A DNA stretch of 64,000 bases from contig CAWDSS010000010.1 in assembly GCA_963805065.1 (NCBI GenBank), positions 19,696 to 83,695 on the forward strand, read 5' to 3'. Origin of the DNA: Candidatus Omnitrophota bacterium. GTDB lineage: Bacteria; Omnitrophota; Gorgyraeia; Gygaellales; Profunditerraquicolaceae. The notes under the pieces are model-generated. The model searched no databases, was not told the DNA's origin, and worked only from the letters and a program-made list of their open reading frames with translations. The position numbers were made by a program, and so were the translations under genes. Shown here piece after piece: positions 3,400-54,818 of the stretch (its first letter is position 1; the number at the start of each line of letters is the position of its first letter).

Positions 3400-3433
3400 G
3401 GGACACCCTTCCGATTGAATTCAAGGGTGTCCC
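3400..3433 (-). terminator. hairpin GGGACACCCTT...AAGGGTGTCCC followed by a T-run on the minus strand (family A repeat)
   Basis: 11-bp perfect arms at 3400-3410 and 3423-3433. The minus strand continues TTTTTTGAC. Sits immediately after the stop of the 3437-3814 gene. Confidence 0.6.
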
Positions 3434-3436
3434 TGG

Positions 3437-25965: not shown

Positions 25966-26039
25966 GGGACACCCTTAAATTCAATCGGGAGGATGTCCCT
26001 ATTTGGGGACACCTTTTGCTTTGGAATCAAGGGTGTCCC
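25966..26039. repeat. two tandem family A hairpins (GGGACACC...GGGTGTCCC)
   Basis: 25966-25999 and 26006-26039. They share GAAT(T)CAAGGGTGTCCC with the 3400-3433 hairpin, one of them in inverted orientation. Confidence 0.55.
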
Positions 26040-26488
26040 TATTTATTGGAGGAAATTATCTCGTTTATTCGCAATAAGATACGTAAATAATCCTTGCGTT
26101 CTTTTTCAGAAAGCATGCTAAACATATCAATAATTGAACGCCTGCGTTCTTCATTAACCTTTTTTGCGATTTCCTGGCCGCGGCTGGTAAGTTTCATACG
26201 TATAAGCCGCCTGTCCCTTGAATCGTAAAAACGCTGGCAATAGCCAGCCTCAACAAGCCTGTCTATCGTACCGGTCATTGCCGCGGTTGACACGTCCATA
26301 AACTTGGCTAAACCCGTCATGGTAGACTCTCCTTGCCTATTAAGATGATCCAAAATAAAAAACTGCGGGAAGGTAATATTTGCCATAGACAATAACCTCA
26401 TTTTGTTACGGCCAAATTCGCGCATGAGAGTAGGCATTATTGCATTAATCTGGTCGGCAAATTTAGCTAAAGAGTTTTTGCCTGCCAT
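26039..26488 (-). CDS. MarR-family transcriptional regulator
   Basis: Winged-helix region FFILDHLNRQGESTMTGLAKFMDVSTAAMTGTIDRLVEAGY...DRRLIRMKLT. Confidence 0.85.
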   Translation of the reverse strand: MAGKNSLAKFADQINAIMPTLMREFGRNKMRLLSMANITFPQFFILDHLNRQGESTMTGLAKFMDVSTAAMTGTIDRLVEAGYCQRFYDSRDRRLIRMKLTSRGQEIAKKVNEERRRSIIDMFSMLSEKERKDYLRILLRINEIISSNK

Positions 26489-48150: not shown

Positions 48151-48989
48151 TTATATTTGTATATACGCGTCTGCAGGCATGCCGGGTTTAAGGTCAAGGC
48201 TGGAATTATCCACCTTTACCTTTATTCTATAAACAAGCTTAACCCTCTCTTCTGTAGTCTGGATGGTTTTAGGAGTAAATTCTGCTTCGCTTGATATAAA
48301 AGAAACTCTTCCTTTATATTTCTTTCCGGGGTAGGTATCAGTAACTACGTCTGCTTCCTGATTTAGCTTTACCCTGCCTAAATCAGTTTCATTGATATAT
48401 GCGGTCACCCAGATATTATTTAAATCAATCACGGTAAATACAGGAGCGCCAACTTGCACCACTTCTCCAGGTAGAGCGCTTTTTACCAGGACATATCCGT
48501 TAAGCGGTGAAACCAGATTGGCAAACCCCAGCCTGGTTTTAGCTAACTCTAAAGACGCTGAGAGTGCATCTACATTTGCCTTATCCGCTATCTGCCTGCG
48601 TTTTGGCCGCATCTCTTTTTTGCATGGAGATAGCTCCTGCCTGGAAAAGATTTTCTGCACGTTCGTAATCCAAGTTTATCCAGCTCGTATTGTGACTCTG
48701 CGGCTTTAAGCGCAGCCTCGGCATTATCGCGAATCTTGGTTAATTCATCGGTGTTTAAATTTGCTACCGGGTCACCGATCTTTAATACCTTGCCTTCATC
48801 AGTAAAAAGCTCGAGGATTTGCCCTTGCACCCGGAAAGATATCCGCACGTCATCTCCCTCGATGTTACCTGAAACTTTAATACCCTTATGGTTATGATTA
48901 CGGTTTTGCCAAAATATGCCTGCTGCTACACCCACGCCAAAAATAAGCAAAACAATAATAATTGCTGCCGGTTTAATTTTTAGTTTCAT
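48151..48989 (-). pseudogene. HlyD/YbhG-type membrane fusion protein, frameshifted
   Basis: Track ORFs 48588-48989 and 48151-48660 are collinear halves. I traced two frame changes, near 48680 and 48600. Confidence 0.75.
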
Positions 48990-50508
48990 TCTTTGCCTCC
49001 TTTAAGAGACTTTCTCCTAGTGTCCGGCTAAGCTCTGCCTTAGCCATAAGGTAATCATAAATGCCTTCAGAAAGATTTTGCTCAACCTGGCCTAAAGATA
49101 CCTGCGAATCCAAAACGTCAAGGTTCTTGGCCTCGCCGTTATCATAACTGACATTGGCTATCCTTAATGCGTCTTTAGCCTCTACAACATTATCCTTTTG
49201 TGAATCAATTATTGTTTGCGCCTGTTTTAAATCAAGACAGGCTTGCTTGACATCTACGGCGATCTGATCCGACATATTATCCTTAGTAAGAATTGCTTCC
49301 CGGTAGCGCGCTTTAGCAGCATCTACTTTTGCCTTGGAGGCGAACCCATCGAATAGCGGGAAACTCAACGATAATCCAATGTTCCAATTACTATGCCTAT
49401 TATTAAAAATATTGCCTAAATAATTTGAGCGGAAATCATAGCCGAGGCTGGCATTGACCTGCGGCCGCCATCCGGCTTTGGCCATTTGTATGGACCATTT
49501 ACTGATATCTACGCCCAGGCCCTTTAAGATCATCTCCGGCTTATTAAGGTAAGCTGTCTTAACAAATTCTTCTTCTTTAATCTCTATCAGGCCGTAAGTC
49601 AGGTTTTTATCGCGTACCTTAAGAGAATACTGTTGGCTGTATCCTAAGAGCTTTTTTAACTCTGCCATAATCAGTTCTACGGCATTTTTTGCTTTCACCA
49701 ATTGCGGCATTAACAAGGCTACCTGGACTTTTGATTGAAGCAGGTCAAACCTGGAAGAAGTCCCCTGTTTAAACCTGTTATTTACATCTTCGTAATGATC
49801 CTGAGCATTATCCACTAACTCCTGGGCAATCCGCTCTGTCTCATAAGCAAGTAGTAGCCCGTAATAAAGGCGTTTTGCTTCAAATTCAACATCAAGTTTT
49901 TTGGCGCGTAGCGTCTCAACCTGCACATTCCGGATGAGTTTTGCCGAATTAAAATTGGCAATATTCGCTCCTCCGTTATAAAGGATCTGGTTGATATTTG
50001 CGCCCAGCGCATTATCATTTTTATATCCGGTAAATACGCCCATGTCCTTTTTCCCTTGCACTATAGCAGGAGCGACTGCGCCGTTATGCGTATAACCTGC
50101 GTTCACATTAACAGAAGGCAAAAACTCACTGCGCGCTCCCATTATGTCGGCGTCTGCAGCCAGCACTTCCTGCTCTTGTATCTGGATATCTTTATTATTC
50201 TTATAAGCAGTTTTTATGGCATCTTCGAGAGATAAAGTTACCTGCTTGTCGGTTTTCTCCTCCTGGCTATATGCGTGAGGCGGCAGCATGCCGGAACAAA
50301 ACAAAATCAAAACTGTTACTACCAGTAAATCATCCACTTTGACATTAAGGGAACTAGCTATTTTAGAAATCGTTTTTATGGTGGGATTGGGATTCCTGCC
50401 GGATTCAATCTTAACGATAGTGTTAAGGGCAAGGTTTGAAAGCTTGGAAAGCCGGTCCTGCGAAATTCCCCTCTTCTTGCGAAACTTCCTTAGATTTACG
50501 CTAATCAT
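48973..50508 (-). CDS. TolC-family outer membrane protein with in-frame N-terminal XRE-type HTH domain
   Basis: Residues 1 to about 62 (LRKFRKKRGISQDRLSKLSNLALNTIVKIESGRNPNPTIKTISKIASSLNVKVDDLL) form a complete Cro/C1 HTH. They run directly into a signal-peptide-like h-region (VVTVLILFCSGMLPPHAYS) and TolC repeats. Confidence 0.7.
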   Translation of the reverse strand: MISVNLRKFRKKRGISQDRLSKLSNLALNTIVKIESGRNPNPTIKTISKIASSLNVKVDDLLVVTVLILFCSGMLPPHAYSQEEKTDKQVTLSLEDAIKTAYKNNKDIQIQEQEVLAADADIMGARSEFLPSVNVNAGYTHNGAVAPAIVQGKKDMGVFTGYKNDNALGANINQILYNGGANIANFNSAKLIRNVQVETLRAKKLDVEFEAKRLYYGLLLAYETERIAQELVDNAQDHYEDVNNRFKQGTSSRFDLLQSKVQVALLMPQLVKAKNAVELIMAELKKLLGYSQQYSLKVRDKNLTYGLIEIKEEEFVKTAYLNKPEMILKGLGVDISKWSIQMAKAGWRPQVNASLGYDFRSNYLGNIFNNRHSNWNIGLSLSFPLFDGFASKAKVDAAKARYREAILTKDNMSDQIAVDVKQACLDLKQAQTIIDSQKDNVVEAKDALRIANVSYDNGEAKNLDVLDSQVSLGQVEQNLSEGIYDYLMAKAELSRTLGESLLKEAKNETKN

Positions 50509-50517
50509 GGTATATAC

Positions 50518-50583
50518 TATTATAATACTACTATTTTAATTATCTTATTATAATACTTGTTTTATAATTCTACTATTATAATA
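50518..50583. promoter_or_regulatory. three copies of the 10-bp palindrome TATTATAATA at exact 28-bp spacing
   Basis: Copies at 50518-50527, 50546-50555 and 50574-50583. The third extends to the 16-bp palindrome TACTATTATAATAGTA. The first lies 10 nt upstream of the XRE-TolC ATG. Confidence 0.5.
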
Positions 50584-50680: not shown

Positions 50681-50791
50681 TTATTCTTCGAGCTTTTCCA
50701 TGGGTTGATTACAGCAGACTAACTCTCCTCCCCCTACTTTTGTTACTGTTACCTCATTGCCGCAAACATTGCACCTGTATTTTTCTCCCAC
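50681..50791 (-). CDS. desulforedoxin (36 aa), below the track threshold
   Basis: Hand translation from GTG: VGEKYRCNVCGNEVTVTKVGGGELVCCNQPMEKLEE. CxxC-x15-CC with the same spacing and length as classical desulforedoxin. The start codon is uncertain. Confidence 0.55.
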   Translation of the reverse strand: MGEKYRCNVCGNEVTVTKVGGGELVCCNQPMEKLEE

Positions 50792-50822
50792 TTCTTTAAC
50801 TGCCGTGTAACCTCCTTTTGTC

Positions 50823-50917
50823 TACGAAGACAACACCCACGCAAATCCGATAAGCGTGGGGTGTCTGCCTATGAAGACAACACCCGCGCAATACAGATAA
50901 GCGCGGGGTGCCTATCC
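50823..50917. repeat. two tandem family B hairpin units (about 47 bp each)
   Basis: Unit 1: GAAGACAACACCCACGCAAATCCGATAAGCGTGGGGTG. Unit 2: GAAGACAACACCCGCGCAATACAGATAAGCGCGGGGTG. Located between rubrerythrin and desulforedoxin. Confidence 0.6.
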
Positions 50918-50943
50918 CCAATGAATAACTATTTTACATGTAG

Positions 50944-51522
50944 TTAATAATTTTCTGCCAGCACTTCGTAAAATGCTTGCGGATGTTTACAGGCAGGGCA
51001 CTCTTTTGGCGCATCCGGCCCTTCAAAAACATAACCGCAGTTGATACAATGCCACTTCACGCTTACCTTCTTCTTGAATACATCGCCATTTAGCAAATTG
51101 TTAATCAGCTTTCTGTATCTTGACTCATGAAATTTTTCCACCTTGGATATCTGCTCGAAGGATCGCGCCACTTCAGGGAAACCTTCGTCTCTGGCGATTT
51201 TGCCAAAATCCGAGTAAAGAACAGTCCATTCCAAATTCTCTCCTGCAGCAGCAGCCTCTAAATTACTCTTGCTATCCTTAATCATGCCTGCCGGATAACT
51301 GGCGGTAATCTCAGTGTCTCCGCCCTCTAAGTATTTAAAGAATACCTTGGCGTGTTCCTTCTCATTCTCAGCAGTCTCCATAAAGATGTTAGCTATTTGT
51401 TCATAGCCTTCTTTCCTGGCTGCTGAAGCAAAATAGGTGTACTTGTTTCTTGCCTGTGATTCTCCGGCAAAAGCAGCTAATAGATTTTTTTCTGTTTTTG
51501 TGCCTTTAATTGATTTACCCAT
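50944..51522 (-). CDS. rbr: rubrerythrin
   Basis: GTKTEKNLLAAFAGESQARNKYTYFA and EKEHAK diiron motifs. C-terminal rubredoxin-like CINCGY...CPACKHP. I prefer the ATG at 51522, preceded by GGAGGTCG. Confidence 0.9.
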   Translation of the reverse strand: MGKSIKGTKTEKNLLAAFAGESQARNKYTYFASAARKEGYEQIANIFMETAENEKEHAKVFFKYLEGGDTEITASYPAGMIKDSKSNLEAAAAGENLEWTVLYSDFGKIARDEGFPEVARSFEQISKVEKFHESRYRKLINNLLNGDVFKKKVSVKWHCINCGYVFEGPDAPKECPACKHPQAFYEVLAENY

Positions 51523-51593
51523 TTTTACGACCTCCTTACAAGTAATACTTGCGTTATATACAGGTATCAATTATAACCGGAATGCGTGGATTA

Positions 51594-52646
51594 TCAATAA
51601 AAATACCGTTTCTTAAAATTCAGCGCTACATTAACAAGTCCAATAAGAACCGGAACCTCAACCAATGGACCAATCACAGCAGCAAACGCGGCACCGGAGC
51701 TTATGCCGAATACAGAAACCGCCACTGCAATAGCCAGCTCGAAATTGTTGCTGGCAGCAGTAAAGGAAAGCGTTGCTGTCTTGGCATAGCCGGCGTTAAA
51801 CTTTCTTCCCATGTAAAAAGAGACTAAAAACATCAGCACAAAATAAATCAGAAGCGGCACGGCAATTCTCACAACGTCCGCCGGTATCTTTATAATGTAT
51901 TCTCCTTTTAAAGAAAACATCACGATAATTGTAAACAAAAGTGATATCAGCGTAATGGGACTAATCACGGGAATGAATTTATTTTCATACCATTGCCTGC
52001 TTTTTATCTTAAGCAGCGTAAACCTGGTTATAATTCCGGCTAAAAACGGTATGCCAAGATAAATGAACACGCTCTTGGCAATTTGTGCAATAGTTACGTT
52101 TACCGCCACTCCCCTGAGGCCAAACCACACAGGTAAAATCGTAATAAAAATCCAGGCATACACCGAATAAAACAGGACCTGAAAAATAGAATTGAAGGCA
52201 ACCAGGCCTGCGCAATATTCTGTATCCCCTCCTGCCAGCTCATTCCAGACAATAACCATGGCAATGCAGCGGGCAAGGCCAATCATAATCAGGCCAACCA
52301 TATATTCCGGATAACCCCTTAAGAAAGTAATCGCCAGAAAAAACATCAGTATCGGGCCGATGACCCAGTTTTGCACAAGCGATAACAAAAGCACTTTCTT
52401 ATTATGGAAAACATCGCCCAGCTCTTCGTATTTCACCTTTGCCAGGGGTGGATACATCATTAAAATAAGCCCGATTGCAATGGGGATATTGGTAGTGCCG
52501 ACTTGAAACTTATTCCAAAAGTTTACTATCTGTGGGTAAAGATATCCCGAACAAACACCGATTCCCATAGCAAGAAAAATCCACAGCGTCAAGAACCTGT
52601 CCAGAAACGACAACCTCCGCGTAGCTTTGTTTTCCATATCAGCCAT
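51594..52646 (-). CDS. acr3: ACR3-family arsenite efflux transporter
   Basis: [22 protein letters not shown]-terminus and about 10 TMs, typical of ACR3. Confidence 0.9.
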
Positions 52647-52754
52647 CTCGTTTTTTATGTTCCAACTCTCTCCTCTTTTTCTAATTATACCACTTCCTTA
52701 TTAAAACGGTAGAAATTAGAAGAATACTATGCGCAACGAGTGGAGAGATCTACA

Positions 52755-52795
52755 CGAAAAAACTAACAGCCACTTTACGAAATAAAGTGGCTGTT
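52755..52795 (-). terminator. rho-independent terminator after glnK
   Basis: 13-bp arms AACAGCCACTTTA and TAAAGTGGCTGTT. The minus strand continues AGTTTTTTCG. Confidence 0.65.
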
Positions 52796-52828
52796 TTCAT
52801 GTTCCTTAGTAGACAACTTGTTGCCTTA

Positions 52829-53170
52829 TTATCCTATTGCAACTGATCCGCGTTCTTCCGTACGGATACGCACACACTCCTTTAAATCTAAAACAAAGAT
52901 TTTTCCGTCTCCGGTCTCTCCTGTCTTTGCTCCTTTTATGATCGCTTGTATTGTGGGCTCAAGAAAATTATCATTAACCGCAATTTCCAGCCTCATCTTC
53001 CTCAAAAGGTTACCCGTCTCTTTCGCTCCGCGATAAAATTCGGTTATGCCTTTTTGTCGGCCATGCCCTAATACTTCGCTTACTGTAATCAGATTTACCT
53101 GAGCTTTATATAACTCTTCTTTCACCGCTTCTAACCGGTGAGGTTGAATAATCGCAATGACTAGTTTCAT
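52829..53170 (-). CDS. glnK: P-II nitrogen regulatory protein
   Basis: [20 protein letters not shown]...GHGRQKG...GDGKIFV. I prefer the ATG at 53170, preceded by GGAGGG. Confidence 0.9.
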
Positions 53171-53195
53171 GAATCCCTCCTTGCCCATAAGGGCA

Positions 53196-53270
53196 CACCC
53201 GCGCAATACTTCCCGCAAGGGAACACTGGCGCAATACCAATAAGCGCCAGGTGCATATAAGCGCGGGGTG
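53196..53270. repeat. nested family B hairpins (one unit inserted in the loop of another)
   Basis: Outer arms CACCCGCGC (53196-53204) and GCGCGGGGTG (53261-53270). Inner unit CACTGGCGCAATACCAATAAGCGCCAGGTG (53224-53253), preceded by the mini-hairpin TTCCCGCAAGGGAA. Confidence 0.6.
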
Positions 53271-54497
53271 TTATTCTAATAAGGTATAGGCGCTTTCGCG
53301 ATGCTGTGTCAGGTCAAGCCCCATAACTTCTTCCCTTTCTTTTACGCGTATGCCAAAGAAAACATCCACCAATTTATATATAACAAATGTTACGGTAAAA
53401 GTATAGACCACAGCAACTAAAACACCGGTCAGCTGAATCAGGAGTTGCTTAGGATTACCGGAAAATAACCCGTTTGCGCCTGCGGCATTAATCGCCTTGG
53501 AAGCAAACAAGCCGGTGGCAAGCGTACCCAGGATCCCGCCTATACCATGCACTCCGAAAGCATCCAATGAATCATCATAACCGAATTTCGGTTTAATCAC
53601 AGCAATTCCGATAAAGCATATAATACTGGCCGATATCCCGATTATTACAGCCGACCCCACGCTTACAAACCCCGATGCGGGAGTAACTGTTGCCAGGCCA
53701 GCAATGGAACCGGTAACAATACCAAATACCGTGGGCCTGCCGTTACGCACCCATTCCAGTAATGCCCAGCTTAAACCTGCTGCTGCAGCCGCAGTATTCG
53801 TTACAATAAAGGCATTCACTGCCACATTATTTACCGCCAGAGCACTTCCTGCATTAAAACCAAACCAACCAAACCAAAGCAATCCTGTGCCTAATACTAC
53901 AAAAGGCAAGTTGTGAGGCGAGGGCGTATGATTTAAACCCTTACGCCTGCCAATAATCAAAGTTGTTGCTAAAGCTGCTATGCCCGCGCTGGTATGCACC
54001 ACAATACCGCCGGCAAAATCAAGCACTCCCATTTGCCTTAACCATCCGCCGCTTCCCCATACCCAGTGGCAGAGGGGGTCATAAACAAACGTAGTCCAAA
54101 GCAAGGCAAATATTAAAAATGCCGAAAATTTCATCCTCTCTGCAAAAGCTCCGATAATAAGCGCGGGCGTAATCACTGCAAACATCATTTGGAAAAACAT
54201 AAAAGCCTGGTTAGGTATGGTTGCAGAATAGTCTGCAAAAGGCTCAAATCCCACGCCATGAAGCCCAAGCCAGCCCCAACCTCCCCAAAAGCCGCTTCCG
54301 GGAGCGAAAGAAAGACTATACCCAAAAAATATCCACTGCAGGCTTACTAAACACAACACCACAATACATTGCATAAGCACACTTAAAATATTTTTCCTTC
54401 TCACCATACCCCCGTAAAAAAATGCCAGGCCCGGGGTCATCAGCATAACAAGCACAGCAGAGAATAGCACAAAAACCGTGTCAACTGGATTTACCAT
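53271..54497 (-). CDS. amtB: ammonium transporter
   Basis: Classic Amt sequence ([36 protein letters not shown]). 408 aa. Confidence 0.95.
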
Positions 54498-54516
54498 CGT
54501 ATCTCTCCCTTCTCTT

Positions 54517-54567
54517 TAAAATAAAAAGCGTTCACTACGCCCATTCCTTCCGGACGTCTTGAACGCT
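54517..54567 (-). promoter_or_regulatory. terminator-like hairpin in the amt 5' leader (possible attenuator)
   Basis: On the minus strand AGCGUUCA-AG-ACGUCC-GGAAGGAAU-GGGCGU-AG-UGAACGCU is followed by UUUUUAUUUU, ending about 20 nt before the ATG. One U-G pair works only on the minus-strand RNA. Confidence 0.45.
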
Positions 54568-54645
54568 TACTTTGCGCTCACTTCCTGATAGGCACTACTA
54601 TGTACCTATCCTTTTTTCTTATTTACACAACTGATTATACAATTG

Positions 54646-54694: not shown

Positions 54695-54818
54695 CAAACA
54701 AAAAACCTCCGCCTTTTCAAGCGAAGGTTTTAATTATTTTAACGTGGCAGTTCCCCCTTCGAAACATACCACACCGAATTATTGTCTATTTTATACATTA
54801 TATTCAATCCATTGTCAA
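54695..54818 (-). ncRNA. candidate small RNA: orphan promoter plus an approximately 85-nt transcript plus a strong terminator
   Basis: On the minus strand: TTGACA (54818-54813), 17 nt, TATAAA (54795-54790). The family C hairpin (54703-54730) is followed by TTTTTTGTTTG. No convincing ORF, only a 16-codon one. Confidence 0.3.

Follow-up and report, generated by a model that had tools for sequence, protein, structure and literature searches.

A two-hairpin candidate insertion module in the short operon spacers of Omnitrophota

Hairpins in two spacers of the window

The window, by which we mean the whole 64-kb stretch of DNA analysed, carries a small hairpin repeat at two loci, each between genes lying co-directionally on the minus strand. 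At the first locus, the spacer between amt and glnK is wholly taken up, when read in mRNA sense, by a nested copy of the repeat and an SD sequence. The features of this locus, from the upstream to the downstream gene and with motifs given in mRNA sense, are:

53271-54497, minus: amt, ammonium transporter (PF00909, E 1.4e-131), upstream of the nested module; stop codon TAA at 53271-53273, directly after which the outer hairpin begins
53261-53270, minus: 5' arm of the outer hairpin, CACCCCGCGC, with a bulged C
53254-53260, minus: 5' half of the outer loop, UUAUAUG, corresponding to loop positions 1-7 of the consensus UUAUNKG
53224-53253, minus: inner 30-nt hairpin, CACCUGGCGC-UUAUUGGUAUU-GCGCCAGUG, a compensated stem variant (51.7 bits including its mini-hairpin); plus-strand reading CACTGGCGCAATACCAATAAGCGCCAGGTG
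53210-53223, minus: inner mini-hairpin UUCCC-UUGC-GGGAA, belonging to the inserted unit
53205-53209, minus: 3' half of the outer loop, GUAUU, of which UAUU corresponds to loop positions 8-11 and the G is a junction base of uncertain origin
53196-53204, minus: 3' arm of the outer hairpin, GCGCGGGUG
53182-53195, minus: SD-adjoining mini-hairpin UGCCC-UUAU-GGGCA
53175-53181, minus: SD AGGAGGG, then 5 nt to the glnK start AUG (53168-53170); unpaired in the centroid fold
52829-53170, minus: glnK, P-II (PF00543), downstream of the nested module

The mRNA-sense 30-nt unit is CACCCCGCGC-UUAUCUGUAUU-GCGCGGGUG. On the plus strand the split outer copy reads CACCCGCGCAATAC (53196-53209) and ATAAGCGCGGGGTG (53257-53270); its halves lie 47 nt apart, where an intact loop has 2 nt at the same point, and the 47-nt insert comprises a 3-nt loop remnant, the inner hairpin and the inner mini-hairpin. 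In the inner stem, CC of the outer stem is replaced by TG and, on the opposite arm, GG by CA, which leaves pairing intact. A first, sequence-only reading of this DNA had described such a hairpin nested in the loop of another copy, with compensatory stem changes, and both observations are borne out: three of the 30-nt hairpins in the window are intact and a fourth is interrupted by the insert. That reading also reported a bulged G in all copies. The bulge is indeed kept throughout, but since the flanking genes lie on the minus strand, the mRNA-sense unit is reversed and the bulged base is a C. For the amt-glnK copy, RNAfold predicts a three-way junction and, after it, the last mini-hairpin; the SD is unpaired in the centroid fold. 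Promoter-like and terminator-like sites (the latter at 52765-52795 and 54702-54731) bracket amt-glnK as one operon, which agrees with the earlier claim that the copies sit inside operons.

Just upstream of amt lies a structured leader (about 54498-54640, minus), with a terminator-like hairpin at 54526-54542 and a U-tract. It is recognisably kept in two related loci (L199 and L204), has no match in Rfam, and may be a nitrogen-responsive attenuator.

The second locus carries a tandem pair with a period of 47 nt between rbr and dx:

50944-51570, minus: rbr, rubrerythrin, upstream of the tandem modules
50881-50910, minus: upstream hairpin of the pair; plus-strand reading CACCCGCGCAATACAGATAAGCGCGGGGTG
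50864-50880, minus: imperfect mini-hairpin or spacer between the two hairpins, UUGUCUUCAUAGGCAGA
50834-50863, minus: downstream hairpin, CACCCCACGC-UUAUCGGAUUU-GCGUGGGUG (69.1 bits including its mini-hairpin); plus-strand reading CACCCACGCAAATCCGATAAGCGTGGGGTG
50818-50833, minus: mini-hairpin UUGUCU-UCGU-AGACAA, followed by AGGAGG at 50812-50817
50681-50791, minus: dx, desulforedoxin-like ORF of 36 aa with a GTG start (PF06397, E 9e-18), downstream of the tandem modules

The module-adjoining GGAGG lies 19 nt upstream of the dx GTG (window 50788-50817); this gap exceeds normal SD spacing, and the start codon or ribosome-binding site of dx is therefore uncertain. Further along, three AT-rich 28-nt direct repeats (TATACTATTATAATACTACTATTTTAAT-like) at 50513-50582 overlap the start, and reach upstream, of an ORF with fused HTH_3 and outer-membrane efflux (OEP) domains (48973-50508, minus). 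They may form an operator array, and the fused ORF call may itself be wrong.

Anatomy, covariation and distribution of the module

The 30-nt hairpin identified by the sequence-only reading is real, but the true repeat unit is longer: a module of about 46 nt, in which the hairpin is directly adjoined by a mini-hairpin of 14-16 nt. This second hairpin had been overlooked, as had the SD-adjoining position, the strand of the genes and the phylum-wide conservation of the loop. The larger hairpin pairs over 9 bp, bulges out a C and closes on an 11-nt loop, UUAUNKGAAUU. The stem of the mini-hairpin, 4-6 bp long, can have nearly any sequence; this second element begins with U, ends with A and carries a tetraloop that mostly ends in GU. 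A mini-hairpin with at least five Watson-Crick pairs begins 0-1 nt past the hairpin in 96 of 122 copies, compared with 1.2% of random positions. The shared layout in mRNA sense is a purine-rich flank or an upstream stop codon, the hairpin, the mini-hairpin and usually (A)GGAGG and a start codon.

Scans with a sequence pattern and with a covariance model, the latter a step that the sequence-only reading had proposed, recovered copies beyond the window. The pattern CACNNNCGCAANNCNNATAAGCGNNNGGTG, with three variable stem positions left free, was run against one genome per species (GTDB) and is present in at least 117 stretches from about 60 species-level assemblies, nearly all of them labelled Candidatus Omnitrophota and including the complete genome of Ca. 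Velamenicoccus archaeovorus. All stretches but one share the hairpin and mini-hairpin layout; the exception, on a Nocardia contig, is a chance match within a coding sequence. Eight module contigs (L008, L031, L032, L060, L061, L067, L072 and L084) carry the public labels Planctomycetales, Margulisiibacteriota, Deltaproteobacteria or Bacillota. They are probably mislabelled or mis-binned Omnitrophota, and the module could therefore serve as a taxonomic marker.

Copy density is modest, with two loci in the 64-kb window, where the covariance model finds no further copies, and none in 66 kb from close relatives. The homologues found by searching metagenomes with Amt were all at most 70% identical and lacked the module, and these served as a specificity control: 378 kb of such unrelated amt loci gave zero covariance-model matches at E<0.01. 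Viral contigs contain no exact match to the pattern. In Rfam 15 the window has no match at the gathering score, and the region 50700-53400 has nothing relevant at E up to 10; the searchable literature on Omnitrophota, hairpins, repeats and RNA motifs, including Omnitrophota genome papers, does not mention the module.

The covariance model (R1, E<0.001) yields 133 matches in 100 sources, namely the window and loci L001-L100. In the resulting alignment, which is itself fitted to the model, 98.6% of cells form standard pairs, and compensatory changes on both sides occur in 14 of 15 pairs, a level reached by none of 500 shuffles. Covariation is seen in both stems, and the stem positions left free in the pattern scan are paired in about 99.6-99.7% of cells. 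The loop is exactly 11 nt long in 123 of the 133 matches, seven of its 11 positions are nearly invariant, and the bulged C is retained in all matches but one (132/133). The earlier suggestion that the element is under selection for its structure is thus upheld. A conserved loop on covarying stems is the pattern of a functional RNA, and it keeps alive the reading of the module as a phylum-wide RNA operator, to which we return below.

Whether selection acts on RNA or on DNA bears on a further explanation: the module could be a DNA-level signal (an uptake sequence, a recombination site or a nucleoid-protein site) or an intrinsic terminator, with RNA structure being incidental. The stems are almost purely Watson-Crick, with no significant excess of G-U pairs (23) over A-C (15), and the plus strand is no worse at folding than the minus strand, both of which would be compatible with a DNA signal. 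Against this, the stems vary with compensation, the loop alone being fixed, which is hard to square with a sequence-specific 10-mer; pairing in the mini-hairpin holds despite its changing sequence; and the orientation of the module is strongly biased. As for a terminator, the module is followed by an SD and a start codon rather than a U-tract, and it lies inside operons whose terminators are located elsewhere. We regard this explanation in all its forms as extremely improbable.

The SD has a predicted unpaired probability of 0.52 beside the native module; shuffling the module lowers this to 0.42, and deleting the module raises it to 0.63. These values lend no support to a device that exposes the SD, which is predicted to be more open without the module; the fold appears to limit interference with the SD rather than to improve access, and the folding statistics suggest a module that is tolerated beside it. 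Other identities considered for the unit fared no better. A promoter lacks a consistent -10 element when the copies are inspected by eye, and the loop and bulge show no evident sequence match to IRE-like, T-loop or K-turn motifs. A CRISPR array does not fit either: there are at most 2-3 tandem copies, and the 17-19-nt 'spacers' are conserved mini-hairpins. A shorter variant hairpin (CACCCGGCC-UUAAAGGAGC-GGCCGG...), with GGCC stems and an SD-like AAGGAG within its loop, was observed downstream of nested modules in L010, L044 and L114.

Genomic context, turnover and self-nesting

An SD and start codon lie downstream of the module in the sense orientation in 73 of 114 copies and in the antisense orientation in four. 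The distance from the module is 19-61 nt, with a single outlier at 78; the start codon is mostly found 24-29 nt past single copies and 48-61 nt past nested ones, and the upstream stop codon is often 0-10 nt from the module. The downstream genes display no functional theme. Sixty-five downstream proteins match 438 NCBIfam families with at most three proteins per family, and those confirmed with Pfam include S7, S13, L31, L35, L7/L12, ClpP, GroES, DnaK, ACP and HU. Two modules abut the 5' ends of tRNA genes in the same orientation (L031:3195-3315 and L007:7176-7315; tRNA-Gly and tRNA-Pro), the mini-hairpin in L031 overlapping the first 3 nt of the tRNA, so that no coherent gene set emerges from the downstream proteins and tRNA spacers. 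Among the few exceptions to co-orientation is a nested-plus-tandem cluster in Ca. Velamenicoccus archaeovorus LiM (about 1.722 Mb; L041:2075-2240), which we take to be the only enrichment-cultured member of the phylum; there, the cluster is antisense to two flanking minus-strand genes. Taken together, the themeless downstream genes, the tRNA spacers and the antisense cluster indicate that the module belongs to transcribed spacers generally and not to a regulon.

Some genomes retain the module upstream of rplT, of hup and of an unannotated 192-aa gene (L068/L070), but others, including relatives with 95% identical Amt, lack it at the same orthologous junctions. We compared the amt-glnK junction among relatives found through their Amt homologues:

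L199, Amt 95% identical to that of the window: spacer of 9 nt, TAGGAGGTATTTATG (TAG-GAGGTATTT-ATG)
L205, Amt 88%: spacer of 9 nt
L202, Amt 87%: spacer of 17 nt
L206, Amt 87%: spacer of 19 nt
L198, Amt 95%: a different structured insert of about 80 nt with its own SD
L200, L203 and L204, Amt 89-96%: other sequences of 59-145 nt
L092, Amt 72%: nested module with the same layout as in the window

Among these loci, the module is present at amt-glnK only in the window and in the distant L092. Since both are nested and closer relatives are without the module, either independent insertion of a double module or repeated loss is needed. The window copy is best explained by the insertion, specific to its lineage, of a double (nested) module, which lies between the stop codon of amt and the SD of glnK. 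The structured insert of L198, which we call family B, was also seen at amt-glnK in L043 (L198:3964-4044 and L043:3185-3283). Its shared blocks are AAATTYTCTTTTCGATAATTT, TTCGCTARATAAA and GTGCTCA, and it brings its own GGAGG; in L198 the original SD remains upstream of the insert.

Differences in occupancy extend to other sites. In the rpsL-rpsG spacer, with flanks about 92% identical, L013 has the module and L037 a different palindromic repeat. At ilvC, comparison of the filled L055 with the empty L102 gives the junction AAAGG^GGAGG without a duplication, and the filled and empty amt-glnK pair shows at most 1-2 nt of microhomology. These differences support the proposal of the sequence-only reading that the element spreads by insertion. 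They do not support its likening to MITEs: neither target-site duplications nor terminal inverted repeats of that kind are seen at the two junctions clean enough to read. An AAGG target-site duplication is not supported either, since only 21% of units have AAGR in front and the sequence after nested copies is AAUU. The mini-hairpin is likewise not an inverted copy of target DNA made on insertion, its 3' arm being missing from the empty ilvC site.

The capacity to insert into its own loop, also claimed earlier, is a recurrent property of the module: about 26 of 125 copies (about 20%) are nested, some of them triply. At four orthologous sites (hup, skp, glnN and a pilT-like gene) the module is single in one genome and nested in another, and at hup L040 has a single hairpin whose stem and upstream flank are those of the outer hairpin in L048. 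The 3' nesting junction is precise, the inner mini-hairpin usually being followed by AAUU-GCG, where AAUU represents loop positions 8-11; the 5' junction is more variable. The outer arms persist in nested copies though the outer loop is destroyed. Inner mini-hairpins are mostly of two types, UCCCC...GGGGA and UUCGCC...GGCGAA, unlike those adjoining the SD, which suggests an active subfamily or double modules moving as a unit.

These observations can be weighed against the operator reading, according to which the module is a conserved cis-acting RNA element whose loop and bulged C are bound by a phylum-wide protein (a processing nuclease, a translation factor or a ribosomal protein) in 5' UTRs and between cistrons, and which thereby sets the expression of many housekeeping genes. 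Nested and tandem copies would then be structural variants, and turnover would reflect recruitment by recombination, not transposition. The presence of the same sequence in about 60 species, the modest copy density, the position immediately before the SD of genes for ribosomal proteins, chaperones, ACP and HU, and an orientation that tracks the sense of the downstream gene all fit such an operator. Its loop is also more conserved than its covarying helices, the opposite of the situation in the selfish hairpin repeats of mitochondria (PMC2800124). Yet an operator sits poorly with close relatives differing in occupancy of the same junction, where unrelated inserts can replace the module, with downstream genes that lack a theme, with copies in tRNA spacers and an antisense cluster, and with nested copies that lose the outer loop while keeping the outer arms. 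We know of no protein that binds the hairpin, and on balance consider this explanation rather unlikely.

Candidate mobilisation, relation to known repeats and significance

The sequence-only reading had linked the repeat to REP elements and their RAYT transposases. We searched for RAYT-like genes with IS200 and E. coli RayT query sequences. Such genes do exist in Omnitrophota loci, but none is found in the window or beside any module. A 163-aa RAYT-like protein with a Y1_Tnp domain (PF01797, E 8e-17) is encoded at L005:5651-6142 (minus) and has homologues in at least 226 clusters of the same length, several of which are labelled by their sources as RayT or Omnitrophota transposase; further RAYT-like genes are located at L207:1783-2274 and L208:1655-2146. 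A supposed RAYT gene in L077 proved to be a false match encoding a different protein. The RAYT-like genes sit among housekeeping genes (ftsW-murG, or upstream of recA), and at both loci that were read (L005 and L207/L208) they are flanked by the inverted repeats GGGGACAGTTC / GGAAACGGTC and not by the CACC module described here. The repeats surrounding the gene in L005 are TAGACCGTTTCTA / GGGGGACAGTTCTA, and the variants in L207/L208 are GGGGACAGTTCC and GGAAACGGTCC.

A second palindromic repeat family (GGGACACCCTT...AAGGGTGTCCC) occurs in the window at 3400-3434, 25966-26000 and 26006-26040, where it occupies the spacers between stop and start codons in minus-strand operons (from thioesterase to ECF sigma factor, and from MarR to OEP). 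Repeats similar to the RAYT-flanking one also fill an operon spacer in L037. The GGGAC core of the second repeat resembles the RAYT-flanking inverted repeats, so this family may be the true REP of the phylum.

A strict REP element mobilised by an Omnitrophota RAYT (a Y1 HUH transposase) would account for a short imperfect palindrome with a conserved bulge, a REP-like feature, and the purine found 5' of the unit in 87% of copies (AAGR in 21%) could reflect a cleavage or target motif; the transposase itself, with its many homologues, is available in the phylum. The different repeat at both RAYT loci, and its use of operon spacers in the window and L037, speak against such an assignment, and the REP/RAYT pair of the phylum appears to be a different family from the CACC module. 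Moreover, module copies are direct tandem or nested in the same orientation and do not form inverted pairs, and a GTAG-type 5' tetranucleotide is absent from their flanks. We therefore consider mobilisation of the module as a strict REP element very unlikely. In 0.95 Mb of loci, no transposase adjoins any module, and neither a mobilising enzyme nor an autonomous parent element of the module was found.

The strict REP/RAYT, terminator and DNA-signal readings thus fail on the features tested. The reading we prefer, with a probability of roughly 55%, is a portable, non-coding and non-autonomous insertion module of about 46 nt in the short spacers of Omnitrophota transcription units. Such a module would colonise gaps between stop codon and SD, tRNA gaps, and the loop of a resident copy between positions 7 and 8. 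Transcribed within a polycistronic RNA, it would fold independently, and this self-contained fold would allow it to occupy spacers of 9-20 nt and leave the genes on either side intact; a nested copy is predicted to form a three-way junction with the SD outside the fold. The invariant loop and bulge might be recognised by a putative conserved host factor, either an enzyme that works on single-stranded DNA and mobilises the module, or a protein that binds or processes RNA. The most likely effect would be that of a structural barrier set between cistrons, influencing how the mRNA decays or is processed, and not that of a gene-specific switch; the role in mRNA processing or stability proposed at first would be of this general kind.

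Phylum-wide near-identity is unusual for a selfish repeat and fits a conserved functional RNA equally well. A tentative extension of the insertion-module reading, possible though doubtful, is that the loop and bulge are recognised by an Omnitrophota-wide protein that cuts, protects or recruits ribosomes at cistron boundaries, the module being a self-nesting cis-regulatory cassette that behaves like a mobile element. If true, the cassette would represent a new class, a global post-transcriptional operator combined with a genomic repeat.

Broadly, the module can be classed with the small structured repeats of intergenic regions. REP/BIME elements and REPINs of Enterobacteria and Pseudomonas are transcribed, multi-copy, extragenic bulged palindromes, often situated within operons between a stop codon and the next gene. 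The module likewise is a short, extragenic, multi-copy imperfect palindrome with a bulge, the occupancy of which varies between relatives. It differs from them in the lack of a GTAG-type motif, in co-oriented tandem or nested copies in place of inverted pairs, in sequence conservation across a phylum and not a species, in its obligatory second mini-hairpin, and, as far as the two loci read can tell, in the other repeat that the RAYT genes of the phylum carry. ERIC/IRU, Correia (CREE), SMAG and RUP/BOX elements are non-autonomous structured repeats in transcribed intergenic regions, as is the module. Depending on their orientation, the RNA hairpins of these repeats reportedly change how an mRNA is processed or how stable it is, and the elements are either 100-150 nt long with terminal inverted repeats and target duplications, or species-specific. 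By contrast, the module measures 46 nt, has one clean junction without duplication and an invariant loop, and inserts into its own loop.

Two further systems offer analogies. Intercistronic protein-binding RNA sites, such as chloroplast PPR10 sites, define and stabilise processed mRNA ends; they are single-stranded and not mobile. The module resembles them by analogy in lying between cistrons just upstream of the ribosome-binding site, with a recognised sequence conserved whatever the flanking genes, and differs in being a hairpin and a candidate mobile element. The hairpin and double-hairpin elements of fungal and sponge mitochondria are small, GC-rich, invade short intergenic regions, form tandem clusters and differ between close relatives, their families being lineage-restricted with conserved stems and variable loops (PMC2800124). 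The module shares with these elements small single or double hairpins in short spacers, tandem copies and variability among relatives, whereas its loop is invariant and its stems covary across the phylum. Having no record in Rfam 15 or in the searchable literature, it constitutes an undescribed family. From the described families it is set apart by its two-hairpin anatomy and phylum-wide conservation, and further by strict co-orientation with transcription, the SD-adjoining position and recursive insertion at a fixed point of the loop.

Almost no members of the Omnitrophota have been cultured; these bacteria are ultra-small and either depend on hosts or are predators, and to our knowledge nothing is known about their post-transcriptional gene control. 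The module is easy to search for, and in dozens of species it marks the boundaries of cistrons that include ribosomal-protein, chaperone and nitrogen genes; operon processing and translation can therefore be studied from existing metatranscriptomes; its covariance model is usable for assigning contigs to the phylum. The invariant loop points to a conserved, putative partner protein. Finally, the empty, single, nested and triple-nested states at orthologous sites provide a clean system for repeat evolution, and raise the question of how structured repeats of such small size spread when they encode nothing and the tightly packed operons that they enter stay intact.
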